Positions 59 to 31,924 of a stretch of 64,000 nt of DNA are shown here, in pieces. The number at the start of each line of letters is the position of its first letter. Position 1 is the first letter of the stretch. The stretch covers positions 2,016,001-2,080,000 of the forward strand of contig OZ242351.1 in assembly GCA_965208675.1 (NCBI GenBank), in the 5' to 3' direction. A model generated the notes under the pieces. It had not been told where the DNA came from. It did no database searches and saw nothing but the letters and a program-made list of their open reading frames with translations. The DNA comes from Candidatus Poribacteria bacterium (GTDB lineage Bacteria > Poribacteria > WGA-4E > PCPOR2b). The position numbers and the translations under genes were made by a program.

Positions 59-3000
59 GTGAACTACATGTCAACCATTTTACCAGCAGACTATCCCCAA
101 AAAATTAGAGACCTCCGCGAGACAAAAGGTTTAACGCAGACGCAATTTGCGGAGCTCGTCGGCGTCTCCTTCGCCACCGTTAACCGGTGGGAAAATGCGC
201 AATCTCGCCCAAACAACTTGGCTTGGAAACGCATCGTTGAGTTGGCGGCGTCGAGTGACGGGGGCCAAGCGGCACAACCGCTTCCCGACGACGCGCCAAG
301 CATGGACTTCGCCGCCGATCCTAACGCCGTTTCAGCGGTTGCAGAGGCGCACCGCCTGGCTTACGGCCACCTATTTAACCCGGCGTTCGCCACGGAAACC
401 TCGCTAATCGACCCGCTCCCGCACCAGCGCATCGCGGTTTACGAAAAAATGCTGGGGCAGAACCCGCTGCGTTTCTTGCTGGCGGACGACGCGGGCGCCG
501 GCAAGACCATCATGACCGGCTTGTACATCCGCGAGATGCTGTCCCGCCGTCTCATCCGCCGCGTGCTTATCATTCCGCCCGCCGGTCTCGTGGGAAACTG
601 GGTACAGGAGATGCGCAAGCTGTTTCGGTTGTCGTTCCGAATCATCAGGGGCGATGACGCGCGAGACGGCAACCCTTTCAGCGGCGCCGAGAGCGATCAG
701 GTCATCGTCAGCGTGGACACCTTGGTCACAGCGCGGGTTTTTGACCGCCTTAGAGACCCTCGAACGGATCCCTACGACCTTGCCGTCTTCGACGAGGCGC
801 ACAAGCTGTCCGCGAATCGACGGCCGGATTTACGAGTGCGCAAGACGAATCGGTACAGGCTGGCGGAAGCTATCGCCGGGGTTGAGGTAGACAGCGACGA
901 CTGGAAATTACCGCAACCCGCCCAGCACCTGCTGCTGCTAACTGCGACACCGCACATGGGCAAGGACTTTCCCTACTATTTCCTGTGGCGCCTGCTGCTG
1001 CCGGAGGTGCTCTCCACCTATGACGCTTTCGATAGATTTCCCCGCGAACTTCGAGATCGGCATTTCATCCGCCGCACCAAGGAGGAGATGCTGCACTACA
1101 ACGAGAAACCGTTGTATCCGCAGCGTAACTGCGACACGTTGAGCTACAATCTCTCGGACGGTCCTGAAGGCGAGCAGGAGCTCTACGACGAGACGACAGA
1201 ATACATCCGCGACTACTACAACCGCGCGAAAGAATTGAACCGATCAGCCGCACAATTGGCGATGAGCGTCTTCCAACGGCGTCTCGCCAGTTCCACCTAT
1301 GCACTCATGCGATCATTCGAGCGCCGGAGAGAGAAGTTGGAAGGGATGATTGACGACATCATGAGCGGACGGGTCAATGAAAAACAGTTCGCCAGCCAGC
1401 AACAGCGTCTCGATGTCCCTAACGACGTATTCGACGCATCGACCGCAGATGAGACCGAGGACGACCAGAACGAAGCGCATGAAAATCAAGCGCTCGGCGG
1501 CACGACGGCTTTCAGCCTTACGGAGTTAATGGTGGAGAAAGGTAAGGTCGAAGAGTTGTTGGATAAGTCTCGAAAATTGTTGGACGCGGGCGAGGAATCC
1601 AAATTTGAGAAACTGCGAGAAGTTCTGCGTCATCCGAAATACAACGACGAGAAATTCATCATCTTCACCGAACACCGCGATACCGCGGAGTTTCTGGTGC
1701 GCCGGTTGGAAGGTCTGGGGTTCACAGATCAGGTTGTGCTTATCCATGGTGGGCTAGACTACCGCGAACGCGAGGAGCAGGTCGAGTTTTTCCGCCGTTC
1801 TGCGGAGAAAGGCGGGGCAAACTACCTTGTAGCGACCGACGCGGCTGGGGAGGGAATCAACCTCCAATTCTGTTGGTTAATGGTCAACTACGATATCCCG
1901 TGGAATCCGGCGCGGCTTGAGCAGCGCATGGGGCGTATCCATCGTTACGGCCAAAAGCACGACCCCGTGGTGATTGTTAATCTCGTTGCGGGCGGCACAC
2001 GCGAAGGGCGTGTATTGAAAACGCTGCTTGATAAACTTGAGATTATCCGAGAGCAGCTTCAATCCGATAAAGTGTTCGATGTGGTTGGGCGTCTGTTTGA
2101 GAGCGTGTCCATGACCGATTATCTGCGGCAAACGCTTACCGACGATGTTGAGGAAGTCGCCGCGTGGTTGGAGGGCAACTTAACGGAAGACCAAGTTCGG
2201 GCACTAGAGCGAAAAGAGCAGGTGCTGTACGGCGGGGGCGGCGACGTGCGCCGTAGACTGCCGCAACTCAACGAGGAGACGGAGCAGGAAATCTATCGTC
2301 ACCTGCTGCCGGGTTATGTCCGCCGTTTCGTGGAGCGTGCGGCGCCGCTTCTTGATTTACGCATTGAAGGCGACGCTGACACCGCCTTCAGCTTGATACC
2401 GAACCGACCGCGTGCGTCTGATTCCTTGCTCACGTCGCTTGAGCGGTATTCCGAGGGTGCACGCCAGCTACTAACGGTGTACAAACCGGTGAGCCGGGAA
2501 GATGCCGTCTGGATGCACCCCGGCGAGCCCGTGTTCGATTGCCTTTCAGACGCCATCCTAGAGCGGTTTGGACGCGCCGGACGACAGGGCGCCGTGTACA
2601 CCGATCCCTATGCCGCCGAGGCGTATCTGTTCCACATTGCGCTGGTTTCTGTTGAACAGCGCGGCAGAGAAGACGAGATGACCGACCTGTTTGATGACCG
2701 TTCTGAGCGTGAAAACGAGCGTAAGCCGCTAGAATCACGATTGGTCGGGCTACGCCAATCCAGCGACGGTAGCGTCACTGAACTTCCAGTCGAACACCTA
2801 CTGCTGCTCAGGGGTGCGGGGGGCTTCGCGCCGAGTCGTGTGCCGCTCGCAACCTTGGCACGCGGTATGGTGCCCGATGCTTTGGAGTTTGCGCGGGAAG
2901 AGATAAGTGAGCGACTGGCGCAGCACCATCGACAGCGACGATTCGACGACCTTCCCTCACGTATGGAGTCCGTCAACCGCGGCTTCGATTTTCAGGCGGC

Positions 3001-3667
3001 CGAACTTGCGGCTGCCCGATCCCGCCTCAACCAACTGGCACGCGAAGGAGATCGGGACGCGGAGAAGGAACTTGGGGTGGTCAGGGAACGACAGCGCGGC
3101 TTAACCGCCGCCCGAAATCGGCGTATGGCTGAACTGCGAGCCGAACCGGAGTTGATTCAGTCCGGGGATGCCGTGATTTTGGTGCACGCCCTCGTCGTGC
3201 CCGTTCAGGACACTGAGGCGGTTGAGCGTTACGACGCCGGCGTTGAAGCTGTCGCCGTGGAGGTTGCAACCGCTTACGAGGAGCACCAAGGGGCAGTAGT
3301 AACGGATGTCTCGAAGCCCGAACTCGCGCGGCGTGCCGGACTGATGGATTGGCCCGGCTTCGATCTCAAGTCCCGCCGCCCAGCAGGCGCCGACGGTTCT
3401 GTTGAGGAACGTGCCATTGAGGTTAAGGGGCGCGCTGGTTCCGGGGATGTGCAGATGTCCGAAAACGAATGGGCGCGGGCTTGCAACTTGCGTGAAGATT
3501 ATTGGCTTTACGTGGTCTTCGACTGCGCGACGCCGCGGCCGCGGCTCGTGCGTGTTCAGGACCCGTTCGCTAAATTGCTCGTCCGCAGCCGCGAATCTCT
3601 GGCGTTCACAATAACCGAGGGGGCGTTGAACGAGGCGTCGGCGCCTGTTGAGGAAACAATGAGATGA
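59..3667 (+). CDS. XRE-HTH + SNF2/SWI2 helicase + C-terminal DUF3883 (PD-(D/E)XK-like) protein of a DUF1156/DUF499 restriction-like system
   Basis: N-terminal GLTQTQFAELVGVSFATVNRWE HTH; LLADDAGAGKT, DEAH, LTATPH, EGINLQ, WNPARLEQRMGRIHRYGQ; C-terminal GFDLKS..IEVKGR..MSENEW. Confidence 0.9.
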   Translation: MNYMSTILPADYPQKIRDLRETKGLTQTQFAELVGVSFATVNRWENAQSRPNNLAWKRIVELAASSDGGQAAQPLPDDAPSMDFAADPNAVSAVAEAHRLAYGHLFNPAFATETSLIDPLPHQRIAVYEKMLGQNPLRFLLADDAGAGKTIMTGLYIREMLSRRLIRRVLIIPPAGLVGNWVQEMRKLFRLSFRIIRGDDARDGNPFSGAESDQVIVSVDTLVTARVFDRLRDPRTDPYDLAVFDEAHKLSANRRPDLRVRKTNRYRLAEAIAGVEVDSDDWKLPQPAQHLLLLTATPHMGKDFPYYFLWRLLLPEVLSTYDAFDRFPRELRDRHFIRRTKEEMLHYNEKPLYPQRNCDTLSYNLSDGPEGEQELYDETTEYIRDYYNRAKELNRSAAQLAMSVFQRRLASSTYALMRSFERRREKLEGMIDDIMSGRVNEKQFASQQQRLDVPNDVFDASTADETEDDQNEAHENQALGGTTAFSLTELMVEKGKVEELLDKSRKLLDAGEESKFEKLREVLRHPKYNDEKFIIFTEHRDTAEFLVRRLEGLGFTDQVVLIHGGLDYREREEQVEFFRRSAEKGGANYLVATDAAGEGINLQFCWLMVNYDIPWNPARLEQRMGRIHRYGQKHDPVVIVNLVAGGTREGRVLKTLLDKLEIIREQLQSDKVFDVVGRLFESVSMTDYLRQTLTDDVEEVAAWLEGNLTEDQVRALERKEQVLYGGGGDVRRRLPQLNEETEQEIYRHLLPGYVRRFVERAAPLLDLRIEGDADTAFSLIPNRPRASDSLLTSLERYSEGARQLLTVYKPVSREDAVWMHPGEPVFDCLSDAILERFGRAGRQGAVYTDPYAAEAYLFHIALVSVEQRGREDEMTDLFDDRSERENERKPLESRLVGLRQSSDGSVTELPVEHLLLLRGAGGFAPSRVPLATLARGMVPDALEFAREEISERLAQHHRQRRFDDLPSRMESVNRGFDFQAAELAAARSRLNQLAREGDRDAEKELGVVRERQRGLTAARNRRMAELRAEPELIQSGDAVILVHALVVPVQDTEAVERYDAGVEAVAVEVATAYEEHQGAVVTDVSKPELARRAGLMDWPGFDLKSRRPAGADGSVEERAIEVKGRAGSGDVQMSENEWARACNLREDYWLYVVFDCATPRPRLVRVQDPFAKLLVRSRESLAFTITEGALNEASAPVEETMR

Positions 3668-27728: not shown

Positions 27729-28682
27729 CTAAAACATCACATTTAGTGAAATGCGCTGCGTCGTGTTGTTCTCAAGATTACCAGTGAGAATCTGGAAAGC
27801 GTAGTCCAGTTGGAGGTTGAACTCTGAAATGGGAATTCTCGCGCTCCCGCCGACTACGACAGCGCCCGCGCCATTCACTCCGCTTGATACCGCATAGCCG
27901 CCGCGAACGCCTATGGATTGATTGAACCACACTTCCGCACCGGCGTGAATCTGGCGATTTCCATCTCGAAAACTAACGTCGAGGAGCCCGACGCTGGATT
28001 TTAGTGCTTCACGCAGGGACTCCTGCGCAATGGTCTCTGCAATCGCCTCAAGGCTGTACGCAAATCCGGTGCGCATATTGACAGGAATTTTATCCTCATT
28101 TGCCTCAGAGACACTAATATCCGCCGGAAGCAGGTTTTCCACCGAAAGCCCCCAACTAAATCCTGGCACCGGTTTTGCTAGCAAACCGACATCAAATGAA
28201 AACGCGGAAGCAGCGGTTTTCTCGGCAAAATACGGATTGGCGCGAACGGATTCATTTTCTTCATCGTAGCGCGTCCCCAGGGATTTGAGGTTTACGCCAA
28301 ACGCAAATTTCTGTAAGAACGATTTGCCGTAAGAGAGTTTTATAGTCTGTTCATCATAAATTTCAGATTCTTCGCTGAGAATACCGATGCTTAATCCTAG
28401 TGTGCCAGCGGCTGCGAGCGGCAATATGCCGCCGATGTAGTCGTAACGGATAAGTCCTTGGAACCGCTGTGCATACGTCGCACTTAACTGGTATTTATCA
28501 ATAAAACCGAGACCCGCAGCGTTATAATGTGCGGCATTGCCATCGTCCGCTATGGCGACGAAAGCGCCGCCCAACCCCAGCGGGCGTGCTCCCACGCCGA
28601 TATCGTTGAATGCAGCGAAGACTAAACCGCCAGGTACAAATAAAACCGCAATTGCAGAGATGACGATTTTCAATTTTATCAT
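27729..28682 (-). CDS. PorV/PorQ-like outer-membrane beta-barrel protein
   Basis: Signal peptide; GVGARPLGLGGAFVAIADD..A.HYN.AGL; terminal beta strand ending in F. Confidence 0.75.
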   Translation of the reverse strand: MIKLKIVISAIAVLFVPGGLVFAAFNDIGVGARPLGLGGAFVAIADDGNAAHYNAAGLGFIDKYQLSATYAQRFQGLIRYDYIGGILPLAAAGTLGLSIGILSEESEIYDEQTIKLSYGKSFLQKFAFGVNLKSLGTRYDEENESVRANPYFAEKTAASAFSFDVGLLAKPVPGFSWGLSVENLLPADISVSEANEDKIPVNMRTGFAYSLEAIAETIAQESLREALKSSVGLLDVSFRDGNRQIHAGAEVWFNQSIGVRGGYAVSSGVNGAGAVVVGGSARIPISEFNLQLDYAFQILTGNLENNTTQRISLNVMF

Positions 28683-28955
28683 ATTTTCTCACCTTTCAAT
28701 GTCTTTTGTGTAAAGCCGAAACCCGATAAAATAGTATCAAATGACCTGATGATAGTTGGAATGCGCGTGGTTACTGACTTCGAGCCATCATCAAATGAGC
28801 GAGTTAGGTTGGCTTAACTAGCCTATCCTTCAAGAAATTCATTGGGTTTGGCTAGAAGCATGACAAAGTATATCAAAAAGGCTATCGCGTGCCAAGCCGA
28901 TGCCAAAGAAAGAGACGTTGTTTTCCCAAGTCTAAGCAATAATAGGCGTATTCTG

Positions 28956-29849
28956 TCATTGCAAGTCTCCTGTAGGTTTGGAACTGGACGGCACGTTGTT
29001 ATCTTTGTCGTCGTCCAAGTTTGCGTTGATGTCATTGAGCGAATGTTGAGGAATAAGGTCGAGATATTGAGAAATGACGCGCTTGGAAAGTTTGGTAATC
29101 TGAGAGATTTTGTCAATATCATCAGTAGCGGTGCGAACAATCTTAACCGACTCATAATCACGGATGTATCGGTCAACAGCTTCTTTGGAGTGCTTGGTCT
29201 CAGCCGCAATGGTTGGCGTCAGATACCCTTGTAGATAAAGGGTGATAATCTCTTTCTTGTGGGTAATTGCTGCTGACAAATCGTGAATGTTGCCGCGGGT
29301 GGGCAAGATTTTTCCACTGGTGCTTTGCCACTCATTGACATACGCACTGACCACCGGGTCTCGGACGTTGAGCAACACAGCCAGGTCTAGTTGAGTCAAC
29401 AATGCCCCTTGGTCATAGGCTTGATAACACCATCGCACCAATCGATGAATTCTGAGTTCACGAGAGCTGAAGCCGCTGTAATAGTGTTCAATGTCCTCGG
29501 GGGCGAGAAAGCTTAAAACCACAGGTTTCATGCGGGTTTTAACGATTGACTTGGCTTTCTGTGGATATTCGTCAATCGGTACAGCCATCCAAACCAGTTG
29601 ACCATAGCTAAGCAGTCGTTCGTTAGGGAGTTGTTCGCCGGAGGCTAGTTTATCAAGTGGCAAGCGAATCAGGAAATAGTCCTCAATGGTTTTGACGATG
29701 TCATCGACAATGGCTTTGGCAGTCACTTCGCCTTTGTCATACCCATAGGAATTGATAAAGCGATGAATCAGCAACTGCCGCAACGATTTATCATTGATAC
29801 GTCTGATTTTCTTCTCGTTGATTTGGGTTCGCGTCAATGATTTACTCAT
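28956..29849 (-). CDS. DUF1670 domain-containing protein (second copy)
   Basis: QAYDQGALLTQLDLAVLL, PTRGNIHD, THKKEII, HSKEAVDRY; ATGA overlap with the upstream paralogue. Confidence 0.8.
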   Translation of the reverse strand: MSKSLTRTQINEKKIRRINDKSLRQLLIHRFINSYGYDKGEVTAKAIVDDIVKTIEDYFLIRLPLDKLASGEQLPNERLLSYGQLVWMAVPIDEYPQKAKSIVKTRMKPVVLSFLAPEDIEHYYSGFSSRELRIHRLVRWCYQAYDQGALLTQLDLAVLLNVRDPVVSAYVNEWQSTSGKILPTRGNIHDLSAAITHKKEIITLYLQGYLTPTIAAETKHSKEAVDRYIRDYESVKIVRTATDDIDKISQITKLSKRVISQYLDLIPQHSLNDINANLDDDKDNNVPSSSKPTGDLQ

Positions 29850-30646
29850 GAGTGCTCCCCCTTTTTTTCATCAACGGGTTCAGGACGAAGTAAAGTCGTC
29901 ATTCGCTCTGTATGTTTGTATTCATCATACAGGGCTAGGTACTCACGAATCAATCGGTCAGAGAGATGGGTGATGAGCCGTATCTGTTCCTTTGGAAAGT
30001 CTTGATGATGGAGCGTTGCTACCTGAGTGAAATTACGCAAGTATCGCAACACGGCGCGTTCGGTATGGTTCGTCTTTCGCTCAATGTCAGTGAATTGATA
30101 GCCTTTAAAGTACAGTTCTAGGATTTGGGTTTTATGAGAAATGCCGGGGCCCATGTCGTGCTTGGCGCCGCGAGTCATTACAAAGAACCCTTGCTGTTTC
30201 AACTGTCGGATATCGCGTTTGACGGTCGCCGGGCTGGAGGTTAATAGCACGGCTAAATCTTCATAGCTGAGCAAAGCGTCTTGTTCATAGGCTTGTTTGG
30301 TTAACCGTAAGATTCGATGTCGTCTGAGTGCTGCAAGTCCATTGTTGGCTAACACCTCAAGGTCGGTGTGCACATCATTGAGGGTGAGTTGGCAGGAGAC
30401 CTTTTTGGCTAAGGCGATGTGTTTACCTGCGGGTTCGTCGGCGGCTACGGCTTCATAGCAGATTTGGCCTGATGTGAGTTTGATATCGGCGTGTTGGGCA
30501 AAGTAGGAAGAAATCTGATTATAGTAGGCTTCGGCAAGAATAGGCATCAGATTGAAGTCTGACGCAATCTTCTGAATAATTGCCGCTCTCGCCGTCTTTG
30601 ATTCCAGACGATTGATACCGTAGTTTGAATGACGTTGTGGTTTCAT
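29846..30646 (-). CDS. DUF1670 domain-containing protein (first copy)
   Basis: QAYEQDALLSYEDLAVLL, TRGAKHDMGPGISHK, HTERAVLRY; GGAGG RBS before ATG 30646 (ORF open from 30658). Confidence 0.8.
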   Translation of the reverse strand: MKPQRHSNYGINRLESKTARAAIIQKIASDFNLMPILAEAYYNQISSYFAQHADIKLTSGQICYEAVAADEPAGKHIALAKKVSCQLTLNDVHTDLEVLANNGLAALRRHRILRLTKQAYEQDALLSYEDLAVLLTSSPATVKRDIRQLKQQGFFVMTRGAKHDMGPGISHKTQILELYFKGYQFTDIERKTNHTERAVLRYLRNFTQVATLHHQDFPKEQIRLITHLSDRLIREYLALYDEYKHTERMTTLLRPEPVDEKKGEHS

Positions 30647-30819
30647 AATGACCTCCATGGATTCATGGTGATTGATGGAAATACCATCTGTTATCAGTTT
30701 AGCTCATGGGGTCATTTGATACAAACTATAAACGCGTTGGAAACGTATATGACGCTTTTAAAGTATATATTTTGTTGCACGATTGGGACTGTCCTTTCGT
30801 TTCAGAAATCGAAAAAATG

Positions 30820-30849
30820 TTGACATGTACCGCAGGAGGTTTATAAAAT
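30820..30849 (+). promoter_or_regulatory. Putative sigma70 promoter
   Basis: TTGACA (30820-30825) with TATAAA or TAAAAT 16-18 nt downstream. Confidence 0.4.
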
Positions 30850-30958
30850 AACGGCAGTTGCCGGTCTGGAATCCTCAATCTTAAATTTTATATGCAAACC
30901 GATTGTCCTTTCAGCAGGTCAGCATAGCAAGGTTGTTGTCGACAAAAAAGGATTTCGC

Positions 30959-31924
30959 ATGATATTAATCAGCACACAAAACGGTATTTACGGCTGGGAT
31001 GAATCCAGCCAAACTCTTAGCCGCTACGCCTTGGAAGGCAAGGACATCCGCCAAGTTGCCGCTACGCTCGACGGAACGTTATTTGCTTACAATGCCGAGG
31101 GAGCGATCTGGACTAGCAGCAACCGGGGAAAATCCTGGGATTGGATTGCGAACTCCCCTATAAACGAGGAGATTACCCTACTCTTCGTTCATCCGATTGA
31201 CGACGACATTTATTTTGGTACCGAACCGCCCAAGATCTACCGTTACAACTGTACCGATCAAGACTGGGAATTAGTAACAGATTTACGCACGCTCGAAACT
31301 TCTAAATCTTGGTACACCCCTTGGGGCGGTCCGCCCGCCGTGCGGAGCGCCGCGCCAGCTTACAGGGATGGACTCTACCTAAATATTCACGTTGGCGGTG
31401 TTTTGCGAACTCTGGACCGCGGTGCAACGTGGCAACCGACAAATAATGGGCTCGAATTAGACGTTCATGAAGTTGCTACGTGCCGTGAACGCGAGCATGC
31501 ACTATACACGGCGACTGCAGACGGCTTTTATCTGAGCGAGGATGGCGGCGCATCGTGGAAAGCACGTAATAATGGATTAGCAATCCGCTATTCACGCGGC
31601 ATAGCCATCCATCCAGACCAACCGGAGACCATCCTCATTAGCGGCTCGCCAACATCTCCGTGGGGTTGGCGCACCCATGGAAAACGGTTTTCCCTTTTCC
31701 GTACTACTGATGACGGCGCGCGATGGAAGCAAGTGTCCCACGGGTTTCCCGAAGAGTGCGCTTCGGAAATCGACACGCACGGCATCGCATTCTCCCGAGA
31801 AATTTCCGACCATGTTCTGTGCGGTGTACGCTCGGGCGAACTCTATGCCAGCAGCGACGCAGGTGAGTCTTGGTCCACTGTAGCTGCCAACCTGCCGTCC
31901 ATACGCAGTTTAGCCGCCCTTTAA
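30959..31924 (+). CDS. BNR/Asp-box beta-propeller protein (WD40/YVTN, glycosidase-like)
   Basis: Repeated S/T-x-D-x-G-x-(S/T)-W boxes (SSNRGKSW, TLDRGATW, SEDGGASW, TTDDGARW, SSDAGESW). Confidence 0.8.
   Translation: MILISTQNGIYGWDESSQTLSRYALEGKDIRQVAATLDGTLFAYNAEGAIWTSSNRGKSWDWIANSPINEEITLLFVHPIDDDIYFGTEPPKIYRYNCTDQDWELVTDLRTLETSKSWYTPWGGPPAVRSAAPAYRDGLYLNIHVGGVLRTLDRGATWQPTNNGLELDVHEVATCREREHALYTATADGFYLSEDGGASWKARNNGLAIRYSRGIAIHPDQPETILISGSPTSPWGWRTHGKRFSLFRTTDDGARWKQVSHGFPEECASEIDTHGIAFSREISDHVLCGVRSGELYASSDAGESWSTVAANLPSIRSLAAL

Follow-up and report, generated by a model that had tools for sequence, protein, structure and literature searches.

The 64,000-nt stretch of a Candidatus Poribacteria genome analyzed here (contig OZ242351.1, positions 2,016,001 to 2,080,000 of the forward strand; hereafter the window) carries a segment of about 2 kb in which two genes of the DUF1670 family are enclosed by inverted repeats. 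The question raised by this locus is whether the segment moves and, if so, what moves it. A sequence-only reading of the window had proposed a mobile element that encodes nothing but the DUF1670 pair, and each of the refuting conditions named in that reading was checked here and came out in its favor. The segment is almost certainly a mobile element. It is also probably an active copy of an undescribed insertion sequence (IS) family, the coding content of which is a coupled pair of paralogous DUF1670 proteins, denoted here as A and B.

The DUF1670 element is marked by a 19-nt inverted repeat at 28734-28752 and 30704-30722, which is 89% complementary (17/19) and is the longest of the five inverted pairs in the region 28000-31500. 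The repeat is conserved in each of the 18 full copies described below. The 13-nt core of the repeat, GTATCAAATGACC, occurs twice in the 64-kb window, where 0.05 occurrences are expected, and none of 100 shuffles reached two. The repeat search and the Pfam assignments bear out the earlier description of 19-bp imperfect repeats (17/19) that bracket two paralogous DUF1670 open reading frames (ORFs) joined by an ATGA overlap.

Copies at other loci and empty-site alleles had been named in the sequence-only reading as tests of mobility, and both were found. The host genome is complete, being a single contig of 4.89 Mb. A second full copy lies at genome positions 4875830-4877833, with 3 mismatches in 2004 bp (99.85% identity) relative to the window copy, and a miniature copy of about 170 bp, which retains both ends, lies at 2221177-2221354 (L003:1481-1658). 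The miniature is located on the stop codon of a gene encoding a WD40 protein with a tail of the type IX secretion system (T9SS), the open frame of which spans at least 893 amino acids (aa). At the miniature's site, a longer version is present in G002, a genome of the same genus, and at least the end is kept in G001; the miniature insertion is common to two same-genus genomes and is therefore old. Sixteen further full copies were found in four related genome records, and all of them align to exactly 28729-30732, an extent that is shared by all copies and reaches slightly beyond the inverted repeats.

The empty sites define the insert to the base. Where the window has CCGATAAAA-TAG...CTAT-AAACGCGTTGG, the uninterrupted sequence of G002 is CCGATAAAACGCGTTGG, the flanks being 92-94% identical. 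A sponge-metagenome contig from another study (run X5) joins 28728 to 30730, skipping exactly 2001 bp, and a hairpin at 80865-80897 of the own genome is empty where L035 and L061 (from G002 and a second record) are longer by 2001 bp. The A-runs at the junctions number 6 in the occupied versus 4 in the empty window site, and 8-9 in the occupied versus 6-7 T/A in the empty hairpin sites. These counts are equally compatible with a duplication of 0, 1 or 2 bp, and the exact cut is ambiguous by 0-3 nt because an A-run lies at the left terminus. The limits first given for the element, 28734..30722, were right for the repeats and too narrow for the element itself, which extends over 28731-30729 plus AA, the empty sites giving 2001 bp. 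The movement of the 2001-bp unit has been recent and precise, and the unit is present in multiple copies. The window copy is younger than the split from G002.

The distribution of the family within the phylum is patchy. Of 151 Poribacteria genomes, 37 contain DUF1670 matches, at most 18 (9 pairs) per genome, and the family is lacking in two of the three other same-genus genomes. In more than 40 of the 120 listed clusters of ORF A homologues, the longest contig measures about 1.5-2.7 kb, as expected of a collapsed repeat that breaks assemblies. In four metagenome runs, the summed contig depth at 28729-28764 and 30692-30731 was up to 1383, compared to about 33 in the flanks. Many of these contigs diverge just inside the terminal 36-40 nt or so, and many related elements in these sponges share termini.

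The sites at which the element lands are of two main kinds. Fifteen of the 18 full copies and all four truncated copies sit in the loop of a hairpin, in one orientation relative to the asymmetric loop. This target is a palindrome with a 13-bp stem, GAAACCGAGTTTT-GAAG^AA-AAAACTCGGTTTC, and the insertion point is GAAACCGAGTTTTGAAG^AAAAAACTCGGTTTC. About 70 such hairpins are present in the own genome (for example, G000:C1:718727-718758 and 80865-80897), many of them with longer conserved flanks. Their orientation with respect to upstream ORF ends, 12 versus 6 and 11 versus 3, suggests that they are intrinsic terminators. Within the genus of the window, the element lands mainly at these hairpins.

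The dominant target is a different one in other Poribacteria genera. There, the ORF B end is visible at 28 loci, of which 24 adjoin the 3' end of a T9SS-like gene, two a hairpin and two another sequence. The gene ends at the 24 loci read ...[RK][KR]M-x-x-x-K-stop, and all four of the flanks tested matched TIGR04183 (T9SS type-A sorting domain) with 34-55 bits against a cut-off of 23. Among 11 paralogous T9SS tail ends of one genus, three are occupied and read GAA|ATAGTATC; the eight empty ends comprise five of GAA|GTAA, one of GAA|GTAG, one of AGA|GTAA and one natural GAA|ATAG. As these ends show, the element enters the last Lys codon of T9SS genes (...AA^GTAA). The ATAG terminus restores Lys and the stop codon, and the host protein is therefore unchanged. 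The sequence ...RKMLIL is read again where metagenome contigs end loosely at the ORF B terminus. The window copy itself occupies an intergenic, off-consensus site that resembles the hairpin and T9SS targets only vaguely.

Further observations were made at these sites. In G018 (L089:311-2320), AA and a 17-nt solo ORF B terminus come after a full element that lies at the end of a T9SS gene, an arrangement that suggests the repeated use of one site or the footprint of an earlier copy. A second T9SS-tail gene, at G000:C1:4222454-4222473 on the minus strand, has ...RKMLILK-TAG at its end; next comes TGTCAATTGACCAG, which matches the end of the miniature at 18 of 20 positions and is possibly a solo-end remnant. 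In the genus g14 (L123-L133), the last 120 nt or so of the T9SS tail genes are 85-88% identical in DNA among paralogues and genomes, so that a cell offers dozens of near-identical landing sites. One T9SS gene bearing an element copy (L078:2386-2687) has stops within its last 100 codons and may be a pseudogene. In G002 (L042, ~2363-3190, orthologous to window ~30765), an insertion of about 0.8 kb is found on the right of the empty site, at a distance of about 35 bp; a duplication of about 35 bp and GCGCGGCAAGATGCCGCGCCTAC-type repeats flank this insertion, which has a reverse-strand ORF and looks like the type formed by repeated palindromes (REP) and RAYT. The word TTGATAC, shared by some T9SS ends and the terminus, is absent from other lineages and was treated as a coincidence or as lineage-specific. 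A target-like hairpin inside the element was also sought; the best local match was 12 nt, and the idea was dropped for the window lineage.

The same organization recurs beyond the host phylum. With a 45%-identical protein used as the bait in metagenome contigs, 31 loci were returned, of which 24 were analyzed. At 31-45% identity, 22 of the 24 loci retain the overlapping A-then-B order. The survey of tandem DUF1670 loci that had been suggested from the window sequence turned out positively, since 18 of 21 distant loci carry their own inverted repeats (12-21 matching nt) just outside the pair, over a span of 1.66-1.84 kb that leaves no room for another gene. These repeats are lineage-specific, each with a short palindrome, namely GCTCAAATGAGC, GGTCATATGACC, GGACATTTGTCC, GGAAGTACTTCC or GTGACACTTGTCAC. 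The termini of the distant elements again begin AT(A/T)(A/G), and the last Lys codon of a T9SS tail gene is the site of several of them. The ends thus co-vary with the proteins across lineages, as would be expected if the proteins bind the ends. Besides bacteria, the DUF1670 family is found in Methanosarcina acetivorans.

The proteins A and B are paralogues, with 34% identity over 186 aa (E = 1e-26), and their ORFs overlap by ATGA at 29846-29849 in a translationally coupled arrangement. The start of ORF A is probably the second ATG, at 30646 (266 aa), because 266 aa is the length of most homologues and GGAGG is found just before this ATG. Each of the 18 full copies retains both ORFs intact. 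The ratio of non-synonymous to synonymous substitution rates, determined over nine lineage pairs, is 0.084-0.154 for A and 0.045-0.098 for B, and both proteins are under strong purifying selection. Neither of them matches any NCBIfam model above its cut-off.

The AlphaFold2 model of A has a mean predicted local distance difference test score (pLDDT) of 90.6 and is all-alpha except for one beta-hairpin. From the N to the C terminus, it comprises two helices, the beta-hairpin with the invariant G78 at its tip, and a winged helix-turn-helix (HTH) at 107-168; beyond this are a conserved loop, PTRGxxxDxGxxxSHK, and two HTH-like units at 172-260. When the N-terminal 108 residues were modelled alone, the pLDDT was 68.9. 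The best fold matches of the N-terminal part are HU/IHF, and they are weak (E 0.2-0.5; Z 4.2 over 38 residues).

About 1250 representative clusters match DUF1670 at E <= 0.001. Some 20 proteins of about 500-570 aa consist of two fused DUF1670 modules, the N-terminal one mostly lacking the PTRG...SHK loop, and four others of 930-952 aa (P0130, P0133, P0135 and P0141) consist of three to four modules; no other Pfam domain is present in either group. These fusions argue that the modules act together as a multimer, which in our reading would place one DUF1670 module on each half-site. The source names of the homologues are 'hypothetical', 'biotin operon repressor' and 'DUF1670 domain-containing protein', and never transposase. 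A full-text search of the literature for DUF1670 or PF07900 gave no paper, and the family has no assigned function in Pfam. In the literature covered on Poribacteria insertion sequences and new IS families, nothing in titles or abstracts concerned the DUF1670 family; the sizes of IS892 and ISA1214 speak against a place for DUF1670 elements among the orphan groups of ISfinder. Contigs of the RNA library of run X18 cover parts of both ORFs at a depth of 3-11, where DNA carry-over is possible, and expression is not claimed.

The following mechanism is proposed for the element. A and B would bind the imperfect palindromic core of each terminal repeat, probably as one A-B pair per end, which fits the fused proteins of two and of three to four modules. 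The bound proteins would then pair the two ends and select the target, and by elimination they would carry out, or directly organize, the breakage and joining of DNA. The exchange at the 2-nt non-palindromic AA core would resemble that of a site-specific recombinase, which would explain the strict orientation. The DUF1670 pair is likely to be the essential machinery for end binding and targeting. That the pair is itself the catalyst is held tentatively; by elimination, it is favored over a recruited host enzyme, and next over an unseen helper element. With somewhat greater reserve, A and B may be envisaged as an unrecognized class of transposase or site-specific recombinase, built of HTH modules and an HU/IHF-like arm and unrelated to the DDE, DEDD, HUH, serine and tyrosine enzymes, which would form an A2B2-type assembly on the palindromic ends and perform strand exchange at the 2-nt AA core, giving base-exact, oriented insertion in terminator loops or in the last codon of genes for T9SS cargo.

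Several results speak against a catalytic role of the pair. The scan of A and B with Pfam and NCBIfam gave only DUF1670 and HTH families and no catalytic domain, and the search with a sequence profile against the PDB gave nothing better than E 0.0024. With the model of A, Foldseek returned no match at E <= 1e-3, and an exhaustive structural scan returned HTH regulators only, with a best Z of 6.8 and none at Z >= 8. Everything recognizable in the proteins is thus DNA binding or bending, and the conserved H-S..[AV].RY motif is taken by us to be an ordinary HTH core. Among 12 long representatives and three 'longer' hits, DUF1670 was never seen fused to a known enzyme domain; they contain only DUF1670 and HTH, apart from one EamA-fused oddity. 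The exact pattern of abutted ends, or circle junction, occurs in none of the 151 genomes, and no circle joint was present in the mapped metagenome contigs; since contigs drop rare forms, this negative carries little weight.

The known enzyme classes were also considered one after another. For DDE/rve-type enzymes, A and B match no Pfam or NCBIfam family at E <= 0.1; the sole near match is an HTH stretch of IS1 (E 0.012, 15.5 bits against a cut-off of 100), and no chain with an RNase-H-like fold is among the matches listed for the model of A. No profile of the Phage_integrase type is matched, and no tyrosine recombinase is among the fold matches listed for A. A tyrosine-recombinase-like reading of the conserved R, K, H and Y residues was rejected, since their order and spacing differ and H198 and Y206 fit the HTH core. 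Neither resolvase-type profiles (serine recombinases and IS607) nor Y1_Tnp and DEDD_Tnp_IS110 (IS200/IS605 and IS110) match A or B, and the element has clear terminal inverted repeats, which are absent from IS200/IS605 and IS110 elements. The plasmid collection gave no tblastn match to the pair, PHROGs and PADLOC gave only weak HTH or CARF-like matches, and the ESM Atlas was uninformative, its best score of 0.80 pointing to unnamed archaeal HTH clusters. The Pfam and NCBIfam profiles thus agree with the sequence-only reading in that no DDE, HUH, serine or tyrosine recombinase gene is recognized, and its analogy to the multi-gene RIT elements finds no support, as no tyrosine-recombinase profile is matched. 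Its heteromeric transposase is a hypothesis for which the fused proteins argue only in so far as they suggest joint action of the modules.

An alternative that is less likely, and nevertheless a serious one, is that the element depends on its host: A and B would be sequence-specific DNA-binding or architectural proteins, and a ubiquitous host enzyme would cut and join the DNA. All recognizable parts of the proteins are HTH or weakly HU/IHF-like, no nuclease or recombinase fold was found, and both the 0-2 bp duplication and the strict orientation are compatible with the action of a site-specific recombinase at a short core. However, the family occurs both in bacteria and in Methanosarcina acetivorans, with lineage-specific ends, so that any host enzyme serving it would need to be universal and to be redirected entirely by A and B. 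The targets, T9SS ends and terminator loops, are moreover unrelated to known host recombination sites, although dif-like sites were not searched for.

It is improbable that the element is a non-autonomous derivative, in which the pair would be cargo or a regulator and the transposase would be supplied by a larger related element or by an unrelated IS. Non-autonomous elements with intact ends are common, and the miniature copy shows that ends alone can persist, as this alternative would have it. However, the complete genome has these ends nowhere but at the two copies and the miniature, and at no other site do they stand next to another gene; the 11 one-mismatch 13-mers of the own genome show no extended similarity and flank no transposase. 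The derivation from a larger element, which had been offered as an alternative when the locus was first read, also finds no support in the 18 full copies and the 18 bounded distant loci, all of which hold only the pair within 1.66-2.0 kb. The strong purifying selection on both genes and the co-variation of the ends with the proteins likewise do not favor such a derivative. In the least probable reading, the cassette is no transposon and consists of two regulatory genes that were spread by duplication or by homologous recombination between their repeated flanks. This reading draws on the repeated nature of the targets (T9SS tails with 85-88% identity over ~120 nt; ~70 hairpins), but the exact junctions, which do not depend on the flanks, already refute it for the most part. 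The window copy occupies a unique site outside any repeat, and the matching empty allele is exact to the base; at the T9SS sites, one flank alone is conserved and the other varies; the insert is constant at 2001 bp with fixed termini; and the hairpin arms, at 12-13 nt, do not reach the length that RecA-type recombination requires.

The element can be compared with known systems. IS1397 and ISKpn1 of the IS3 family target repeated palindromes, as do members of IS110/IS1111 in REP sequences, and the likeness is evident in the oriented insertion into the loop or center of a short repeated palindrome of which many empty targets exist. Those elements, however, have DDE or DEDD transposases, and the IS110-type ones have no inverted repeats, whereas the DUF1670 element has repeats and no such profile. 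Tn7 inserts at attTn7 downstream of glmS via TnsD; it has the five genes TnsABCDE and produces a 5-bp duplication. In both cases, the conserved 3' end of a gene serves as a safe, oriented landing site that leaves the host protein intact, but the DUF1670 element has two HTH proteins, its duplication measures 0-2 bp, and its point of insertion is within the last codon.

The IS630/Tc1-mariner elements are similar in their small size, their inverted repeats, a duplication on the scale of a dinucleotide and the recognition of the ends by paired HTH units, whereas no DDE/D domain was found in the DUF1670 pair. A TA duplication of the IS630/Tc1-mariner kind was tried and rejected: it predicts the empty site CCGATAAAATAAACGCG, G002 reads CCGATAAAACGCG, and no such TA is found in the common hairpin loops either. 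IS21 (istA/istB) likewise has two overlapping, co-transcribed genes between inverted repeats, for a DDE transposase and an AAA+ helper; in the DUF1670 element, however, the two genes are mutually paralogous and neither has an enzyme domain. Integrative mobile elements exploiting Xer (IMEX) use the host XerCD, integrate at dif and carry dif-like sites. They share with the DUF1670 element the site-specific movement of DNA that has no recognizable recombinase of its own, but the DUF1670 elements have inverted repeats, are multi-copy and lie at T9SS ends or terminator loops.

The positions of the features are summarized in Table 1. The element has a G+C content of 45.7%, compared to 49.2% for the genome and 50.7% and 52.3% for the 5-kb flanks; it is AT-richer than its flanks, as had been noted earlier, by a modest difference. 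Its position between two divergent host genes was also recognized correctly, these being a PorP/SprF-like gene (minus strand) and a BNR/Sortilin-like gene (plus strand). In the predicted RNA fold of the 3' region, the subterminal repeat at 28785-28799 pairs with the terminal repeat, and it may represent an extra protein-binding site. The fold of this non-coding region is not unusually structured (z = -0.16), Rfam gave no match above threshold within the element, and no antisense or extra ORF is conserved across six lineage representatives. The leader has a folding energy of -23.5 kcal/mol (z = -2.95), and an equally stable fold was obtained in 3 of 200 shuffles. This fold is a candidate translation block that would silence read-through from a host gene whose terminator has been split.

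Table 1. Features of the DUF1670 element in the window, with an example of its target.
Feature	Position	Strand	Remarks
Element proper	28731..30729	-	1999 bp; perfect 4-bp termini ATAG...CTAT; with one flanking AA, 2001-bp insert
Left AA (0-2 bp), target duplication or crossover core	28729..28730	.	A-run counts at occupied versus empty sites
Right AA, duplication or core	30730..30731	.	Empty-site comparisons, as for the left AA
Inverted repeat, ORF B end (GTATCAAATGACCTGATGA)	28734..28752	+	Imperfect palindromic core TCAAATGA
Inverted repeat, ORF A end (GTATCAAATGACCCCATGA on the minus strand)	30704..30722	-	AAACTAT next outwards
Subterminal repeat of the end motif (CCATCATCAAATGAG)	28785..28799	+	About 50 nt inside the ORF B end; read in the sequence
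Non-coding 3' region, about 200 nt	28753..28955	-	No conserved ORF, no detectable RNA family
ORF B, DUF1670, 297 aa	28956..29849	-	Pfam E 1.3e-60, 205 bits (cut-off 25)
ORF A, DUF1670, 270 aa	29846..30658	-	Pfam E 9.1e-63, 212 bits (cut-off 25)
Leader	30640..30732	-	Possible base pairing of the terminal repeat with the start codon and ribosome-binding site of ORF A
T9SS tail end, example of target sequence			...ATACGGAAGTAA

To our knowledge, a handful of enzyme classes account for the movement of all well-characterized prokaryotic transposons. The mobility of the present element, the family of which is spread over bacterial phyla and at least one archaeon, has been traced to single bases, and yet its sole genes encode two DNA-binding paralogues, which means either a new chemistry for moving DNA or a new way of hijacking a host enzyme. 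The landing in one orientation within a 2-nt window, with the codon and the stop rebuilt, is a natural form of 'harmless landing' and is potentially useful. DUF1670 units explain many of the collapsed metagenome contigs of about 2 kb, and in annotation they belong under mobile elements and not under regulators. Either outcome gives DUF1670 a function.

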